Position numbers and translations under genes: made by a program. From Acidilobaceae archaeon (lineage in GTDB: Archaea; Thermoproteota; Thermoprotei_A; Sulfolobales; Acidilobaceae), in assembly GCA_038897215.1 (NCBI GenBank), contig JAWAWX010000001.1, forward strand, positions 64,001 to 128,000: 64,000 nucleotides of DNA. The letters are read 5' to 3'. How positions within the stretch are numbered: the first letter of the stretch is position 1; the number at the start of each line of letters is the position of its first letter. The notes under the pieces are model-generated. The model made no database searches, had not been told where the DNA came from, and worked only from the letters and a program-made list of their open reading frames with translations. Shown piece by piece: positions 26,725 to 63,832 of the stretch.

Positions 26725-28035
26725 ATGGTGCTCCTCTTGCTCAAGCTGACTCTGTCTCCTACCGCTAGAGACCTCGATAGAGCTCTGGAGGCAGCATACA
26801 AGTCGCTCTACCAGGTTCTAGAAGCGTCGTCAGCTGAGGGCAGGCTCCTCGTCAGAGTCTACCCTAACCTAGACCCTATAGTCGCCGGAGTCATAGTCGC
26901 TACTCGAGCTCTCCGCGCTGGCGTCAGAGTATCCTTCAAGACCTCGCTAGAGCCTCCTCTCGAGATTCGAGAACCCTCCGTTCTAGTCGGCTACAGTAAG
27001 CTAGACTACTCGGCTCAAAACGTGACTAAGCCCATGATAGCTATAGCCTCAGGGTCTATAGACTCGATCCCCGTCCACGGAGCCACCTTCGTGGGAGGCC
27101 AGGGTAGCAATACGGCGGTAGCCGCTCTCATCGCGACGAGTGGAGTGTTCAGCGCTGGGACTGATATCGTGTCTCTAGCTCTACTAGGCGTCTACTCTGG
27201 GAGCTACGTGGACCCCGTTGGTAGATTCGCTGGGCTAGATAGAGTGCTAGTGGACAGGCTGTCAGCTAGCGCACCGAGCCTCGATGTGATCACCACGATC
27301 AAGGTGTATAAGCCCCACCTCTTCGACGTGTGTGAAGCGATATCGAGAACAGCGCACCCCCTCTACCTAGGGCTAGCCGGGAACCCTTGGAGATGCCAGG
27401 AGATCCTGGGGGTCGAGAAGTATAGGAGTGTCGCCGGGAAGCCTCTCTCCTCTATAACAGACCTGAAGGAGGTAGAGAGGCTAGCCAGGCTGGTCCTAGA
27501 CTATATGCATAGTAGCTTCAAGTCGAGGATCTCGGCTAAAGACATAGTAGCAGGCATCATGGTGTCCAAGAGTAGAGAGTCTATAGTCCAGGACTACAGG
27601 GAGGCGTCCGACGCAGTAGTCTACGTGTCGGACGCGGAGAAGAGCCTAGCTAGAGCAGTCGCCACTCTACTAGACTACTCGATAGAGTTGCCTCTAGCCG
27701 AGTCTCGTCTAGAGCTTCACGCGAAGAGCCTCTCCGACGCCGTCATAGGAGGGTCTATAGCGAGACTGGGAGGACCCCAAGGCCCTAAAGTCTACTTGGT
27801 CAGCGCTAAGCCAGAAGTCTCGCTGACACTACTCTGGAGAGCCTTGAAGACTCACGGCTTGATAGAGCCTGACTCCATTCTAGTCGTGGAGGAGAACGGA
27901 GAGCTTTCAGCCTCCCCTATTCAAATAGAAGAAGCTCTAGGCTACGGGGCTCTCAGAGAGCTCGCTAGAGCCGGTCTAGTATCATTCGATGGTGATAGAG
28001 CCTGGGTGGAGAGGAAAGCGCTAGGTGCGAGGTAG
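26725..28035 (+). CDS. Degenerate DHH/RecJ-like protein (Cdc45/GAN ortholog by context)
   Basis: Occupies the RecJ slot of the conserved rps15-recJ-pcc1-rps3ae string. Remnant motif I (YPNLDPIVAG), no DHH. Confidence 0.7.
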   Translation: MVLLLLKLTLSPTARDLDRALEAAYKSLYQVLEASSAEGRLLVRVYPNLDPIVAGVIVATRALRAGVRVSFKTSLEPPLEIREPSVLVGYSKLDYSAQNVTKPMIAIASGSIDSIPVHGATFVGGQGSNTAVAALIATSGVFSAGTDIVSLALLGVYSGSYVDPVGRFAGLDRVLVDRLSASAPSLDVITTIKVYKPHLFDVCEAISRTAHPLYLGLAGNPWRCQEILGVEKYRSVAGKPLSSITDLKEVERLARLVLDYMHSSFKSRISAKDIVAGIMVSKSRESIVQDYREASDAVVYVSDAEKSLARAVATLLDYSIELPLAESRLELHAKSLSDAVIGGSIARLGGPQGPKVYLVSAKPEVSLTLLWRALKTHGLIEPDSILVVEENGELSASPIQIEEALGYGALRELARAGLVSFDGDRAWVERKALGAR

Positions 28036-29072: not shown

Positions 29073-30311
29073 GTGAGGATCCTGGCTATACTAGCTGGAG
29101 GCAGAGGAGAGAGGCTGAAGCCTCTCACCGAGACCAGGCCCAAGGCTGTCCTCCCTGTTCTCGACGAGCCCCTAGTGTGCAGGCACGTGAGGCTAGCGAG
29201 CTCCTACTCGAGCTTCGACAAGGTCGTAGTCGTAGTATCCTACGAGGCTACTCAGGTAGCTAGAGCTCTCGAAGAGTGCGGAATCGAGGCAGAACTCGTG
29301 AACCAGGGGGGAGAGCTGGGCACGGGTGATGCCATAGCTAAAGCCATGGAGGCAGGGGGTCCCGGGGACTACACTCTGATTTACGGTGACGTCTACGTGA
29401 AAGAGGAGGTCTACGAGCTCCTCTCTAAGCTAAGAGCTCCCAGCGTGCTCCTAGCAGAAGCCAGAGACCCCTCTAGCTACGGGGTCGCTAGAGTGAGCCC
29501 CGACGGCTTCCTCGAGAGCATAGTAGAGAAGCCCTCGAGTCCTCTCGGCTCCTCTCTGGTTTTCGCTGGACTACTCAAGCTCAGCTACGAGCACTCAAGC
29601 TTCTTCAAGAACCTCAAAGCATCCCCCAGGGGGGAGCTAGAAGCCACAGATGCTCTAAACGAGATCTCGAAGAGCTACGAGGTCAAAGTAGCGGTAGCTC
29701 CTAGAGACTCGTGGGTAGACGTAGGCAGACCCTGGGATTTCCTCAGAGCAAACATCATGGCTCTCTCCGAGCTGAGAGAACAGGTGATCGAGGGCGATGT
29801 GAGCGAGAAAGCGGAAATCTCGGGGCCTGTGCTCGTGAAGAGAGGTAGCTCCATAAAGCCCTACACGGTCATCGAGGGACCAGCCTATGTGGGCGAGGAG
29901 GCTGTAGTAGGGCCTCTGGCTCACGTCAGAGGCTACACAGTAATCGGCAAGAGAGCCTTCATCGGGGCCTTCACAGAACTCAAGGCAAGCGTGGTGCTCG
30001 AGAGAGCGCGCTTACCACACTTGAACTACGCTGGGGATAGCGTGATAGGAGAGTACGCGAATCTAGGAGCTGGAACCAAGATAGCTAACCTCAGATTCGA
30101 CGAGCAAGAAGTCGAGATGACCGTCAAGGGAGTTAGAGTCAAGACGGGGCTCAGGAAGCTCGGCGCGGTGATAGGAGGGTACGCTAAGACTGGGATAAAC
30201 GTCTCGATAATGCCAGGCGTCAAGATAGGCTCCTACGCTATCATATACCCGGGGTGTGTTGTGAGTAGAGACGTAGAGCGAGGAGAGGTGCTCAACTGCT
30301 GGTCACGGTAG
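29073..30311 (+). CDS. glmU: Archaeal bifunctional sugar-1-phosphate nucleotidyltransferase/acetyltransferase (GlmU-like)
   Basis: LAGGRGERLKPLT, EKP, SPRGELE, hexapeptide LbH region with HLNYAGDS and NLGAGT. Confidence 0.88.
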   Translation: MRILAILAGGRGERLKPLTETRPKAVLPVLDEPLVCRHVRLASSYSSFDKVVVVVSYEATQVARALEECGIEAELVNQGGELGTGDAIAKAMEAGGPGDYTLIYGDVYVKEEVYELLSKLRAPSVLLAEARDPSSYGVARVSPDGFLESIVEKPSSPLGSSLVFAGLLKLSYEHSSFFKNLKASPRGELEATDALNEISKSYEVKVAVAPRDSWVDVGRPWDFLRANIMALSELREQVIEGDVSEKAEISGPVLVKRGSSIKPYTVIEGPAYVGEEAVVGPLAHVRGYTVIGKRAFIGAFTELKASVVLERARLPHLNYAGDSVIGEYANLGAGTKIANLRFDEQEVEMTVKGVRVKTGLRKLGAVIGGYAKTGINVSIMPGVKIGSYAIIYPGCVVSRDVERGEVLNCWSR

Positions 30312-31840
30312 GCCTAGCCTACCCGAGCGAGGAGCGAGTAGCGCTATCAAGCCTAGCCTATCATCTAGTAGGGGGGCTTCTCGAAGAGCTAGGAGTAGGA
30401 GTCAGAAGGTACTTCCTAGAAGATGGGAGCGTGAGGCATAGAGGCAGGTACAGAGAGAGCCCTAGGTCGAACGATGCGGTGATGGTGAGCATATCCTACG
30501 AGCTCCTCTACCTAGACGCAGCCAAAATGCTCTACTCTATGGGAATCCCCCCAGCTAGAAATGCGCGCTCCGAGAGCGACCCTATAGTCATCGCGGGAGG
30601 CCCGGCTCCCACGGGCAACCCTCTACCCCTATGGGAGATAGCGGACGCAGTAGTGATAGGCGAGTTCGAGGAGATAGCGGACAGCATAGTCGACGCTCTC
30701 TCCAAGCCCACTAGGCACTCTAGGCTGAGAGCTCTCTCCGAGATCGAGGGGGTTCTAGTTCCAGACTACACAGCTAGCCGAGTGAAGAGAGCCTACGTGA
30801 GAGACCTCGACTCAGCCTGGTACCCTCTCAGGCAAGAGCTCCCCCAGGGAGTAGAGCCCGTGTGGGGCAGAGTCTTCATGCTCGAGACTAGCAGAGGGTG
30901 CTTCAGAAAGTGCAGGTTCTGCCTGGAGGGGTGTATATTCAAGCCTAGGAGAGACAGGAGCTTCACCAAGCTTAGAGAGCTCTTGGAGACAGGAGTCTCC
31001 ATCAACAAGGTAGGCAAGGTATCCTTCTACAGCCTCTCATTCTTCGATAGCCCTAGCGGAGAGCGCATACTAGAACACGCTGTATCCCTCGGTCTCGAAG
31101 TCTCAGTGCCCAGTCTGAGAGCAGAGACTCTGACCGATAAGAGAGCTCTCCTCCTCGCTGAGGGGGGTCAGAGAACGGTCTCCATAGCCCCCGAGACTGG
31201 GAGTAGCGTGATAGCTAGAGCTATCATGAAGCTATCGGGGCGAGCGGGGGCTCTGAGAGCAGCCGAGATCCTGGCCTCAGCCGGAGTCAGGCAGGTCAAA
31301 GTCTACCTGATGGCGGGATTCCCGGGGGAGACCGAGGAAGACTTGAGCGACACTATCGGCATGATGCTTGACGTCAAGAAGATTCTGGAGAAGCGCGGAG
31401 CCAGAGTCAGAGCGTCAGTGAACCCCTTCATACCCAAGCCCTCAACCCCCCTTCAGTGGTTCGGCTTCAGCAGAGAGAGAGCCGAGAGAGCTCTAGAGCT
31501 CGCCCGGGCTCTCTCGAAGGCCGGCGTCGAGGCAGATGTTTACCCGCTAGACTACGCTGAGCTACAGACAGCTCTCGGGAGAGCGGACGCTACATCGTCT
31601 AGAGCCATAATCGAGACAGCTCTCGCTGGCGGAGGCTACAGGAGCCTCTTGAGAGCTCTCAAAGCGAGGTCGCGAAAGCCTCTGGTAGACTGGAGCCCTA
31701 GCGAGGAGCCAGCTTGGTCGATGCTGATAGAGGACTACTACACGAGCTCAGAGAGGCTCAGAGGAGAGCTACGAGAGTATGTGGATACTCTATCGAGCGC
31801 GGGTAGAGATGTGAAGCGACTCCTCCCCCAAGACTTCTAG
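30296..31840 (+). CDS. Radical SAM protein with N-terminal B12-binding-like domain (CUG start proposed)
   Basis: ETSRGCFRKCRFC, SISYEL, IAGGP, APETGS, FIPKP. The conserved-looking N-terminus VGLAYPS...ALSSLAY lies upstream of the ORF-track start at 30431. Confidence 0.85.
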   Translation: MLVTVGLAYPSEERVALSSLAYHLVGGLLEELGVGVRRYFLEDGSVRHRGRYRESPRSNDAVMVSISYELLYLDAAKMLYSMGIPPARNARSESDPIVIAGGPAPTGNPLPLWEIADAVVIGEFEEIADSIVDALSKPTRHSRLRALSEIEGVLVPDYTASRVKRAYVRDLDSAWYPLRQELPQGVEPVWGRVFMLETSRGCFRKCRFCLEGCIFKPRRDRSFTKLRELLETGVSINKVGKVSFYSLSFFDSPSGERILEHAVSLGLEVSVPSLRAETLTDKRALLLAEGGQRTVSIAPETGSSVIARAIMKLSGRAGALRAAEILASAGVRQVKVYLMAGFPGETEEDLSDTIGMMLDVKKILEKRGARVRASVNPFIPKPSTPLQWFGFSRERAERALELARALSKAGVEADVYPLDYAELQTALGRADATSSRAIIETALAGGGYRSLLRALKARSRKPLVDWSPSEEPAWSMLIEDYYTSSERLRGELREYVDTLSSAGRDVKRLLPQDF

Positions 31841-31986
31841 CTCGAGCCGAGCTACTCGGCATCAGCGAGTGGGAGAGAGTGAGAGTAAGCCTCGCTGCGG
31901 AGACTAGAGCTGAAAGAGCTCCCTCTAGAGGCTCTATTTAAGCCTTGAGTTCAGCTGTGTTTAGAAGAGCCTCAAGGTGTAGAGGA

Positions 31987-32634
31987 GTGGCTATCTCAGC
32001 ATACCAGCATATGGAGGAGTGGTGGAAGAAGCCCTACGAGGGGGAGCACGCTGAGGTGATGAGACTCAGGCTTATCGAGTGGAGGAGAGAGCCCGTCGTA
32101 GTCAGAGTAGAGAAGCCGACGAGGCTGGGGAGAGCTAGAGCTTTAGGCTACAAGGCTAAGCAGGGAGTAGTAGTAGTCAGAGTGAGAGTCAGGAAGGGGG
32201 GTAGGAGGAAGGCTAGACCGAACAAGGGTAGAAGGCCTAAGAGAATGGGGGTCTACGGCTTCGCTCCAGCAAAGAGCCTGAGGCTCATAGCCGAGGAGAG
32301 AGCTCAAGCCAAGTACAGAAACCTAGTAGTCCTCAACAGCTACTACGTTGGAGAAGACGGGAAGTACAAGTGGTACGAGGTGATCCTAGTAGACCCCCAC
32401 CATCCCGCTATCAAGAGCGACCCTGAGCTGAACTGGGTATGCTCCGGCAAGCACAAGGGGAGGCCCTTCAGAGGGCTCACTAGCGCTGGGAGGAAGATGA
32501 GAGGCTTGCTGAAATCGAGAGGGCTCAGAGGAACGCACAAGCACAAGTGGAAGAAGAAGGCTAAGGAGAGAGAGCTCAAGAAGAGGCATGAGGCTAGCAG
32601 AGGAGCAAGGCTCATAGAGGAGAGCAGAGAGTAG
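31987..32634 (+). CDS. rpl15e: 50S ribosomal protein eL15
   Basis: [39 protein letters not shown]. Start GTG 31987. Confidence 0.97.
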
Positions 32635-32663: not shown

Positions 32664-33098
32664 ATGTCTGTATCCTCAGCAGTCCTCAGAACTCACGTTC
32701 ACGCTACGGAGGACAGAGAGAAGGTCCTAGCTGCTCTCAGAAACACTCTCCCCCCGTCTCTCAGAGAGACCGTGGAGGTCGAGAGCGAGTCTTACGAGGG
32801 GCACTACGGGAACAGGATCGAGGTCCTCACAGTGGAGCTGAGAGACTCCGAGGAGGCCGGAGCGCTCCTCTCCTACCTCCTAGAGTCTCTAGGAGACGCG
32901 GATAGGAGGCTACTCCTCGCTACTCTAGCAGAGAGAGTGGATGAGAGCGGCTCGCTCTACCTGAGGCTCGACAAGCAGAGCGCCTACAGAGGCGTGCTTG
33001 AGCTAAGCGATGGAGACGACGTTATCAAGATTGAGATACGAGTAGAGGGCGGCAGGAGAGGAGCTCTAAGGATACTCAAAGAGGTGCTCTCGAGATAG
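32664..33098 (+). CDS. Conserved archaeal RNA-binding protein (COG1325/DUF54)
   Basis: HATEDREKV, GHYGN, LYLRLDKQ. Canonical position between rpl15e and rnp3. Confidence 0.9.
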   Translation: MSVSSAVLRTHVHATEDREKVLAALRNTLPPSLRETVEVESESYEGHYGNRIEVLTVELRDSEEAGALLSYLLESLGDADRRLLLATLAERVDESGSLYLRLDKQSAYRGVLELSDGDDVIKIEIRVEGGRRGALRILKEVLSR

Positions 33099-33778
33099 GG
33101 GGCTTCGCCGACCTAGGCCTCAGGCCTAGAGACGTTGACGCTGCTCTAGAGATGGTCAAGCTAGCCAGAAGGCTGGGCTACAGGCTTCTCTGCATTGAGG
33201 CCAGCGAGACTGTGGACTACGAGGCGGTAGCCAGGCTAGCTGGAGAGCTGGGCGTGAGACTATGCGTTAGAGTCACGGTCGAGGGGAGGAGCAGGAGGGA
33301 GGTCAGAGCTGAGATAGAGAGAGTGAAGAAGAGCTCGGGAAACCGTCTCCCGCTGATAGTGGTGAACGCTAAGACCGTGGACTCTATGAGGTACTCAGCT
33401 ACATGCAAAGAGGTAGCACTCACTAGAGTAGAGCCTGGCTTCGAGAAGCTCATAGACAAGTCTCAAGCGCGACTCTTCGCTCAAAGAGGCTGGGGAGCGG
33501 TAGAACTCACACTCAGACCCCTGCTAGCCGGGAGCGGTCTCGACTACCTCTACTCAGCTGTCTCTAGAGCGTTGGAGGCAGGAGTAGACGTAGTCGTCTC
33601 AAGCGATAGCAGAGAACCGTGGGAGATGTGGAGCCCCTATCATGTAGTAGGGCTACTTGTCACCATGGGTGTTCCCGAAGCCACAGCTAGAACCTGGGTC
33701 TCCTCGGCTCCAGCTAGAGTGTCGGAGAGAACTCTCGCTGAGAGCATGCAGCACTCTCAAAGACTGTATCAGAGTTAG
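33095..33778 (+). CDS. rnp3: RNase P protein component 3 (Rpp30; AUA start proposed)
   Basis: PHP-like pattern GFADL...ARRLGY...VVSSDS...SP in conserved context. The first strand lies upstream of ATG 33152. Confidence 0.82.
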   Translation: MGGFADLGLRPRDVDAALEMVKLARRLGYRLLCIEASETVDYEAVARLAGELGVRLCVRVTVEGRSRREVRAEIERVKKSSGNRLPLIVVNAKTVDSMRYSATCKEVALTRVEPGFEKLIDKSQARLFAQRGWGAVELTLRPLLAGSGLDYLYSAVSRALEAGVDVVVSSDSREPWEMWSPYHVVGLLVTMGVPEATARTWVSSAPARVSERTLAESMQHSQRLYQS

Positions 33779-52242: not shown

Positions 52243-52736
52243 CCCAAGACCCTCTTAGCTATAGCGTAGCCCGTTGCCAGCGATAGCAGCCCGAGAACCA
52301 CCTCCGGTCTGGCGGCCTCTAGGAGAGCGCCCCCGAGCCCTCCCCCGTCCTCCTCCGCTCCACCGCTAGCCGCCTCGAGCGCGACGGAGGCGAGCCCCGC
52401 GATGCCAGCCGCCGTGTACGATACCAGGAGCGCTGCGGCTAGAGCCACGCCAACGACCGCGTAGCCCACGCTCTCTGCTCTCGACCTCTTCAACACGGCC
52501 TTAGCGTAGAGACCGGCCACGGTAGCGCAGGCTAGCGCATCGAAGAGCCCGGGGCTCCAGTAGACTCCCAGAGCCTCGCGGTCGAGAAGCCCGGCTACGG
52601 TAGACGCTAGCGACGTGGCGGCAACTAGAGCGTAGAGCAGAGCTAGAGCGGCTATCGCGGCATGTATGTCTCTGCTCCTAGCCCAGGTCTCGACGTCTCT
52701 CTGGTCTAGGTAGAGTCTGCGCCTAGCCATCTTCAA
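52239..52736 (-). CDS. Hypothetical membrane protein coupled to feoB
   Basis: 3-4 hydrophobic segments, TTGA overlap with the feoB stop. Confidence 0.65.
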   Translation of the reverse strand: MKMARRRLYLDQRDVETWARSRDIHAAIAALALLYALVAATSLASTVAGLLDREALGVYWSPGLFDALACATVAGLYAKAVLKRSRAESVGYAVVGVALAAALLVSYTAAGIAGLASVALEAASGGAEEDGGGLGGALLEAARPEVVLGLLSLATGYAIAKRVLG

Positions 52737-62600: not shown

Positions 62601-63832
62601 GTTATAGCCGAGTCTTTACATACAGTCCCTCTCCGTACTACTCTATGAGGCCACACCTTGCACCTCGAGAGAACAGCTCCATCCTCTATTATCGCGTTAT
62701 CGCCTACAACGCTATCCTCAATTCTCACCGACGAGCCTATCGTCGCGTGCCTCCCGATAACGCTGTTCTCGATCGAAGTCTTGCTCCCAATGCTACACCT
62801 ATCCATTACTATAGACCTAACTATTGAGACCTCGTCCCCGACTATCACGAAATTGTCTATCACAGAGTCCTCTAGAGCTACTCTAGAGCCTAGCTTGACG
62901 TGTCTGCCGAGGAGCACGTCACCACTCACTCTCAAATCACCCTCCTCTACTCTCTTCACGACCTCAGCTTGGAGTCTCTTTGAGAGCGCGGTTCTACCCT
63001 GCATCTTGAGACCCCTGTACTCTGTCTCCACATCTAGGAGGTCTCTCGTGAAGCTCTTCACGACGTAGAGCGAGGCTTCTATCAGCCTCTCGGGAGTCCC
63101 CACATCGAACCAGAACCCCTCCAGCTTGTAGCCCGCTACTCTCTCCCCCTTCTCGATCACTCTCGGTATCACGTGCATCCCGAAGTCTCCCTCTCCTCTC
63201 TCGATCATCTCGGAGAACTCTCCGGACAGCAGGAACTCGACCATCTCTCTCGATAGCAGGTATATGCCTGTATTGGCTAGATTGGAGGGAGCTTGACTGG
63301 GGTCTTTGGGCTTCTCTACAAACCCTCTAATCAAGCCCTCTGAGTCTAGCTTGGCGACACCGAAGTGCTTGAGCTCTCTCGGGTCGCTGATCTCTTTGAG
63401 GGCTATCGTCATGAAAGCCTTCTTAGACTCGTGGTACTCATACATGTCTCTAACGTTCACCGAGGCCAGAGTGTCGCACTGGACTACGAGAACCGGCTCT
63501 CTTATGCTGTAGTACTCTAGGAGTAGCCTCACGGAGTGAGCGTTGCCCACAGTGCTCGCGTTGGGCTGGTAGCGGACTCTGACCACCTTGTACTCTCTCC
63601 CCCCGAGAGGGACTCTGAAGTAGGAGCCTAGGTGGTCGTGTAGAGTCTTGTAGTTAGTATACCCGCTGACGCCCAGATAGAACTCCTCGATTCCCTCTAG
63701 AGCTAGGAGCTGTACTATGAAGTCTATGAGGAATCTGTTGGCTAGCCTCACCATAGCTTTAGATGTCTCTACCGTGAGCGGGTAGAGGCGAGTGCCGAGC
63801 CCGCCCACCGGGATCAAGGCTTTCGTGATTAT
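62597..63832 (-). CDS. NDP-sugar pyrophosphorylase family protein with LbH domain (AUA start proposed)
   Basis: KALIPVGGLGTRLYPLT, FVEKP, NTGIY, WFDVGTP, hexapeptide tail. The ORF-track TTG at 63817 cuts the first beta strand. Confidence 0.88.
   Translation of the reverse strand: MITKALIPVGGLGTRLYPLTVETSKAMVRLANRFLIDFIVQLLALEGIEEFYLGVSGYTNYKTLHDHLGSYFRVPLGGREYKVVRVRYQPNASTVGNAHSVRLLLEYYSIREPVLVVQCDTLASVNVRDMYEYHESKKAFMTIALKEISDPRELKHFGVAKLDSEGLIRGFVEKPKDPSQAPSNLANTGIYLLSREMVEFLLSGEFSEMIERGEGDFGMHVIPRVIEKGERVAGYKLEGFWFDVGTPERLIEASLYVVKSFTRDLLDVETEYRGLKMQGRTALSKRLQAEVVKRVEEGDLRVSGDVLLGRHVKLGSRVALEDSVIDNFVIVGDEVSIVRSIVMDRCSIGSKTSIENSVIGRHATIGSSVRIEDSVVGDNAIIEDGAVLSRCKVWPHRVVRRGTVCKDSAIT

Follow-up and report, generated by a model that had tools for sequence, protein, structure and literature searches.

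In the Acidilobaceae archaeon studied here (GenBank assembly GCA_038897215.1), translation of the RNase P subunit Rpp30 almost certainly starts at an AUA codon and not at AUG, GUG or UUG, as judged from comparison with related genomes and from a structural model. The gene lies on the window, i.e. the whole stretch of 64,000 nucleotides that was analysed (contig JAWAWX010000001.1, positions 64,001 to 128,000 of the forward strand), and it is very probable that Rpp30 is produced as a 227-residue protein from the AUA at 33095, with the ribosome placed at this codon by the motif GAGGTG 8 nt upstream. The features of the locus, in window coordinates, are the following.

32664 to 33098, plus strand: upstream gene for a PF01877 'RNA_binding' protein of 144 aa, with ATG start and TAG stop (ORF; PF01877 E 8e-39).
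33081 to 33086, plus strand: Shine-Dalgarno sequence (SD) GAGGTG, within the 3' end of the PF01877 gene, 8 nt upstream of the ATA.
33095 to 33097, plus strand: ATA, the proposed Rpp30 initiation codon, the sole near-cognate codon common to both sister species and the codon called by NCBI in the sister.
33096 to 33098, plus strand: TAG stop of the PF01877 gene, overlapping the ATA (ATAG); TAA in the sister species (ATAA).
33095 to 33778, plus strand: complete coding sequence of Rpp30, made up of 227 codons followed by a TAG stop (PF01876, AlphaFold, Foldseek).
33104 to 33121, plus strand: codons 4-9 (F-A-D-L-G-L), which lie ahead of the first canonical start and form strand beta1 of the TIM barrel (DSSP on the model, strand at 4-9).
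33152 to 33154, plus strand: first canonical codon, ATG (Met20), within helix alpha1 (14-27), which is the call expected from a gene finder working on the ORF list.

At the junction of the two genes the sequence reads ...AGAGGTGCTCTCGAG ATA G..., with GAGGTG at 33081-33086, a spacer of 8 nt, the ATA at 33095-33097 and the TAG at 33096-33098. Stop and start thus share nucleotides, and the SD lies inside the upstream ORF. An earlier note on this DNA had described just this arrangement, in which the ATA is in the Rpp30 frame and shares its TA with the upstream TAG, and reading of the sequence confirmed it. The nearest in-frame stop upstream of the ATA is the TGA at 33032-33034, and the frame is therefore open for 20 codons ahead of the ATA in this genome, but from that TGA until the ATG at 33152, which is 19 codons downstream of the ATA, it contains not a single ATG, GTG or TTG. 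Translated from the ATA, it begins I-G-G-F-A-D-L-G-L. The motif GAGGTG is complementary to the 3' end of the 16S rRNA, ...GGATCACCTCC, which was located in the same genome, and canonical starts peak genome-wide at 6-8 nt past GGTG; the ATA, a codon one base away from AUG, is found at this canonical distance and has no canonical alternative. Three features make this ATA stand out: its distance of 19 codons to a canonical start, which is the longest, the 6-nt SD at canonical spacing, and the homology upstream of the ATG. Ten other couplings of the ATGA/GTGA/TTGA type, to which the junction had been likened, are real as well, nine of them reading [AGT]TGA on the plus strand, and the one at 52736 reading TCAA, which is TTGA on the minus strand.

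There is little doubt about the identity of the gene. The PF01876 profile (RNase P subunit p30) matches with 49.9 bits against a cut-off of 35 and covers profile positions 15-212 of 214, and the gene order L15e (PF00827), PF01877, Rpp30 corresponds to the rpl15e/PF01877 operon context of the archaeal exosome/proteasome superoperon, with the neighbours L15e and PF01877 likewise kept at related loci. Pop5 is not adjacent to Rpp30 here, and the next gene downstream is a PF03706 gene. By tblastn and profile searches, Rpp30 is present in nearly all genomes searched (41 related genomes, then 67 of the family), and in about 60 Acidilobaceae genomes the match sets in at query residues 1-6, which is the F/Y-x-D-L strand. 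In an alignment of 27 sequences, F4-A5-D6-L7 forms this N-terminal strand, and the conservation of D6 and P11 reaches 90% or more. A search of the PDB with the profile of these 27 sequences (E 1e-13) aligned human Rpp30, which begins M-A-V-F-A-D-L, from its residue 4, so that the human Met, three residues ahead of the F, has the same position as the ATA here. The AlphaFold model built from the alignment (pLDDT 95, pTM 0.90) forms strand beta1 with residues 4-9, and its helix alpha1 spans residues 14-27 with Met20 inside it (DSSP); the best 12 Foldseek matches are all Rpp30/Rpp1 proteins, including PH1877 and those of M. jannaschii, T. kodakarensis, yeast and human (TM 0.60-0.71). The proposal that the N-terminal strand of Rpp30 is encoded upstream of the first canonical start is thus strongly supported by homology and by the model, and the alignment of orthologues that had been called for in order to locate Met1 places the beginning of homology at F-x-D-L, ahead of Met20.

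Further support comes from the sister species, a public Acidilobaceae MAG (G001) whose genome has a GC content of 45% versus 54% here and whose Rpp30 protein is 64% identical. It keeps the ATA, the GAGGTG and the 8-nt spacing, while the upstream stop is TAA (ATAA) and the two codons after the ATA differ. In the sister a stop closes the Rpp30 frame as few as 8 codons ahead of the ATA, and this interval contains just one more near-cognate codon, an ACG 5 nt from the SD, which is GAG in the present genome, and therefore the ATA is the sole near-cognate candidate common to both species. Of the 19 residues before Met20, 10 are identical between the two species, 4 of them with synonymous changes only. 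Taking homology, model and this conservation with synonymous changes together, the 19 codons before Met20 are predicted to be coding. The sister protein is recorded on 17 contigs, and the four assemblies that were read are identical over the stretch; this agreement rules out a sequencing or read error at the putative start codon. NCBI annotates the sister gene from the ATA, as M-K-S-F-A-D-L... with 223 aa (MEM0340210.1 and others, 'RNase P subunit p30 family protein'), and the AUA start on Rpp30 is thereby already implicit in public annotation. It is the same gene with the same SD and the same ATA, but the call is automatic and made without comment, and the upstream stop there is TAA and not TAG as here. 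No paper describing this ATA-start gene of the sister species was found in the literature searched, and a protein-pattern scan of metagenome contigs yielded no more members of the genus. The use of AUA as the start of a core gene, which the earlier note had proposed from one sequence, is strongly supported by this comparative and structural evidence, and it can be regarded as a real and well-supported predicted start in an uncultured lineage, the organism being known only from assemblies.

As to how such a start may work, the 6-nt SD in the end of the PF01877 gene would position the ribosome 8 nt from the AUA, with the spacing found at canonical starts, and it would be the unusual length of this SD that makes initiation at AUA possible. 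Pairing of the initiator tRNA with the AUA would leave the third base of the codon mismatched, and the protein would then carry Met at position 1. The weak codon probably holds the output of Rpp30 low relative to that of the upstream gene, and this low expression may be the benefit of having an AUA. The ATAG overlap sits where terminating ribosomes arrive, which may help but would not be needed. An unusual initiator tRNA was considered as an explanation and was set aside, as the initiator tRNA of this organism looks ordinary: its A1:U72 pair is normal, and its anticodon stem has three G:C pairs.

Rpp30 is conspicuous in this respect in the whole family. Its 5' junction was read in 62 Acidilobaceae genomes, and the predicted start is TTG in 24 of them, ATG in 13 and GTG in 13, while in 12 the interval from the in-frame stop to the conserved strand contains no canonical codon. 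The 12 non-canonical cases comprise the 2 genomes of the present genus (ATA), 5 of 8 in genus g7 (ATC in three, ATT in one, and ATA or TTA in one), 3 of 4 in g13 (ACG) and 2 of 4 in g6; as the counts come from related genomes, they represent about four lineages and not twelve independent events. Where the near-cognate start can be named, it lies 7-8 nt past the GGTG of the SD, the same distance as that of canonical codons elsewhere in the family. The SD match extends over 6 nt in 7 of the 9 near-cognate Rpp30 genes with an assigned start codon versus only 1 of the 50 canonical ones. The adjacent PF01877 gene, taken as a control, has a canonical start in all 29 loci that contain it, whereas Rpp30 has none in 6 of 27 (Fisher p 0.009, with the reservation that kin are not independent), and L15e apparently also has canonical starts in the same set of loci. 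On this sequence evidence, Rpp30 is a recurrent site of predicted near-cognate starts in Acidilobaceae.

Two g6 junctions differ from the others, L008 (G006) and L092 (G061), as they have neither a canonical nor a near-cognate codon ahead of the Y-I-D-L strand. They carry a TTC 7 nt past GGGGGGTGA, at the place where sister genomes carry TTG, and the ATA of Y-I-D shares bases with the upstream stop.

A wider reading of these data can be put forward tentatively, with slightly less in its favour than against it. Start-codon selection may be relaxed in Acidilobaceae in such a way that any codon one base from AUG is usable behind a long SD, with Rpp30 as the hot spot. The AUA, AUC, AUU and ACG starts would then have arisen in at least four genera, where they would set a very low synthesis of this RNase P subunit and be compensated by the 6-nt SD. 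The recurrence on one low-abundance subunit of a ribonucleoprotein, together with the stronger SD, suggests selection on the translation rate and not an accident. If this tentative reading is true, Acidilobaceae are a natural system for studying how aIF1, aIF2 and the initiator tRNA control the fidelity of archaeal initiation.

The Rpp30 codon has company elsewhere in the genome. With crude gene calls on the 1.16-Mb genome and a sister genome rebuilt from 20-kb pieces, stop-to-stop ORFs of the two were compared, and filters on identity and overlap removed conserved TATA-like promoter sequences, overlaps with other genes, and genes that are split by in-frame stops in this genome. After filtering, 48 genes remain whose first canonical codon is preceded by 8 or more residues with homology to the sister. 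In such genes with extended homology, near-cognates account for 13 of the 39 in-frame codons that lie 5-9 nt past an SD, versus 8 of 86 out-of-frame codons at this distance (p 0.0016). The clear cases are mainly CTG, in a RidA-like gene, a radical SAM gene and the gene at 28002 of the window, and further candidates are ACG (3), TCG (2), ATC, ATT and ATA. About 15 genes, or about 1-2% of the genome, thus have a near-cognate start candidate, about half of them without a neighbouring upstream gene. So far as the compared sequences can tell, the Rpp30 AUA belongs to a use of near-cognate starts that is sparse and extends over the lineage. Gene finders would shorten or miss these about 1-2% of genes in this genus in a similar way as they do Rpp30.

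Two more general counts gave no signal. A census of trinucleotides by their offset past GGTG has peaks for ATG, GTG and TTG and no visible ATA peak, and is too noisy for rare ATA or CTG starts, and a column-wise comparison of start codons between this genome and G001 was swamped by starts shifted by a few codons. The missing ATA peak in the census and the lack of ATA enrichment in xTA[AG] overlaps mean that ATA starts are rare.

Some of the individual genes deserve a description of their own. In the radical SAM gene (window 30281-30433, plus strand), the first GTG (30431) comes after about 45 conserved codons, and a CTG CTG at 30296/30299 lies 5 and 8 nt past GAGGTG in both species. At 28002 (plus strand), a CTG 7 nt past GGTGAT is aligned with a TTG of the sister and stands at the start of a small conserved ORF. 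A second ATA candidate lies near the end of the window.

63830 to 63832, minus strand: second ATA start candidate, of a 411-aa sugar nucleotidyltransferase, with GAGGTG (63846-63841), 8-nt spacing and an ATAA overlap.

Outgroup orthologues of this transferase carry ATG in exactly the ATA column. The orthologues in G003, G007 and G017 have no canonical start there and have ATT or ATA instead.

An alternative, favoured when the AUA was first pointed out, is that this codon can be used only through reinitiation by a ribosome that has just terminated at the overlapping TAG, whereas de novo initiation at this AUA would fail. In its favour, each of the two ATA candidates in the window forms part of an exact ATA[AG] overlap and has the same SD spacing, PF01877 and Rpp30 overlap or directly adjoin each other in most of the family genomes that were read, and reinitiation at overlapping gene pairs has been demonstrated in Haloferax and E. 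coli, with one group of Crenarchaeota making ample use of SD sequences for it (PMC6728339). The near-cognate starts as a group do not follow the overlap, however. A co-directional gene ends nearby at 8 of the 15 candidates, compared with 47% of all genes, and the RidA-like CTG and several of the ACG, TCG and ATC candidates have, by the crude gene calls, no upstream gene within 1 kb. Of 195 junctions with the geometry of a 4-nt overlap, 123 involve a TGA stop, and the codon on it is ATG, GTG or TTG in 111; in the remaining 72, which are of the xTA[AG] type, the codon is ATA in 10, which is no enrichment. The genome-wide scan for ATAG and ATAA overlaps behind an SD, which had been proposed as a check, turned up the second GAGGTG-8 nt-ATAA junction in the window, but it lent no support to a general preference for ATA at such overlaps. 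Also the related Rpp30 genes with ATC, ATT and ACG have other overlap lengths or none. Since the candidates are no commoner at co-directional junctions, ATA is not enriched and the overlaps of related Rpp30 genes vary, it is the strong SD that appears as the constant feature of the predicted near-cognate starts, and not the 4-nt overlap. Reinitiation as a requirement for AUA is thus unlikely, and the role of the overlap is unproven and probably incidental, not that of an enabling factor.

Very improbable is a start at the ATG at 33152, which would give a protein of 208 aa and make the upstream homology a non-translated remnant. This ATG is the first canonical codon and the choice of a standard gene finder, as gene finders accept only ATG, GTG and TTG and call a truncated Rpp30 without the first barrel strand. 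Met20 lies inside alpha1 of the AlphaFold model, and a start there would therefore delete beta1 and half of alpha1; the strand that would be lost is encoded in every relative, the 19 codons in question show amino-acid conservation with synonymous changes, and no SD precedes the ATG. Still harder to believe is an N-terminus that comes from a frameshift fusion with the PF01877 protein or from another upstream non-AUG codon (AGG, AAG or ACG), for which the 20 open codons ahead of the ATA would leave room in this genome, but the sister frame is closed 8 codons upstream and its ACG, 5 nt from the SD, is GAG here, and the fusion in particular was rejected because there is no slippery heptamer at the junction and relatives differ in the frame of one gene with respect to the other.

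The preferred reading, a direct start at AUA behind a long SD, can be set beside several known systems. Initiation at AUA and AUU is known from animal mitochondria, where AUA is also an elongator Met codon that is read by a modified tRNA-Met. The likeness to that system is the AUA initiation itself, whereas ATA in the present genome is an ordinary in-frame sense codon, assumed to stand for Ile as in the standard code. In E. coli, the only confirmed non-canonical starts are the AUU codons of infC and pcnB, and initiation from AUA, AUC, AUU and CUG reaches about 1-2% of the AUG level in that species, which counts against an AUA start here (10.1101/063800). With infC and pcnB, Rpp30 shares an AUH codon behind an SD, a housekeeping role in RNA metabolism or translation and a weak codon that is thought to limit expression, but the Rpp30 case is archaeal, with discrimination by aIF1/aIF2 and not IF3 and with no known autoregulatory loop, its codon overlaps the upstream stop, and one and the same gene shows the trait repeatedly within a family, with four different codons. 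With the ATGA/GTGA/TTGA coupling (Huber et al. 2019, PMC6728339) it has in common the 4-nt overlap, the SD in the upstream ORF and the co-directional conserved operon pair, but the start is ATA, the shared stop is TAG or TAA and not TGA, and the genome-wide data suggest that it is not the overlap that permits the near-cognate codon.

Current reviews accept only AUG, GUG and UUG for archaea, as does a 2020 review of archaeal initiation (PMC7531240), which also counts against an AUA start here, and profiling hits at near-cognate codons are discarded as noise. In ribosome profiling of Haloferax volcanii, near-cognate codons made up about 30% of the putative alternative initiation sites, but they were put aside because they might be false positives (Gelsinger et al. 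2020, PMC7261190). Those sites resemble the present one in that archaeal initiation would take place at codons one base from AUG, but they are mostly alternative or internal, whereas Rpp30, a conserved essential gene, has its near-cognate codon as sole start. The literature searched yielded no paper that deals with near-cognate starts of Crenarchaeota or with such starts on Rpp30. An essential, conserved archaeal gene with AUA as its only start would be a clean natural case of near-cognate initiation driven by an SD.

Several other genes attracted attention during the comparison of the two genomes. An isopropylmalate/homocitrate-synthase-like gene outside the window (C1 780764-780800, plus strand) has its conserved N-terminus D-T-T-L-R-D-G after an in-frame TAG in both species, and there is neither a canonical nor a near-cognate codon between the TAG and D-T-T-L-R-D-G in this genome. 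A ThiI-like gene (C1 730204, plus strand) and a GlmS-like gene (50068, minus strand), both also outside the window, contain in-frame TAG stops in this genome and continue for 112 and 430 more codons, respectively, in the sister species. These interruptions may reflect split genes, pseudogenes or assembly errors, and they may be related to the completeness estimate of 89.7%. The L15e ORF of the window (31945-32634, plus strand), which is listed from a TTG at 31945, is probably over-extended, as relatives align from about residue 12-18 and have an ATG start there.
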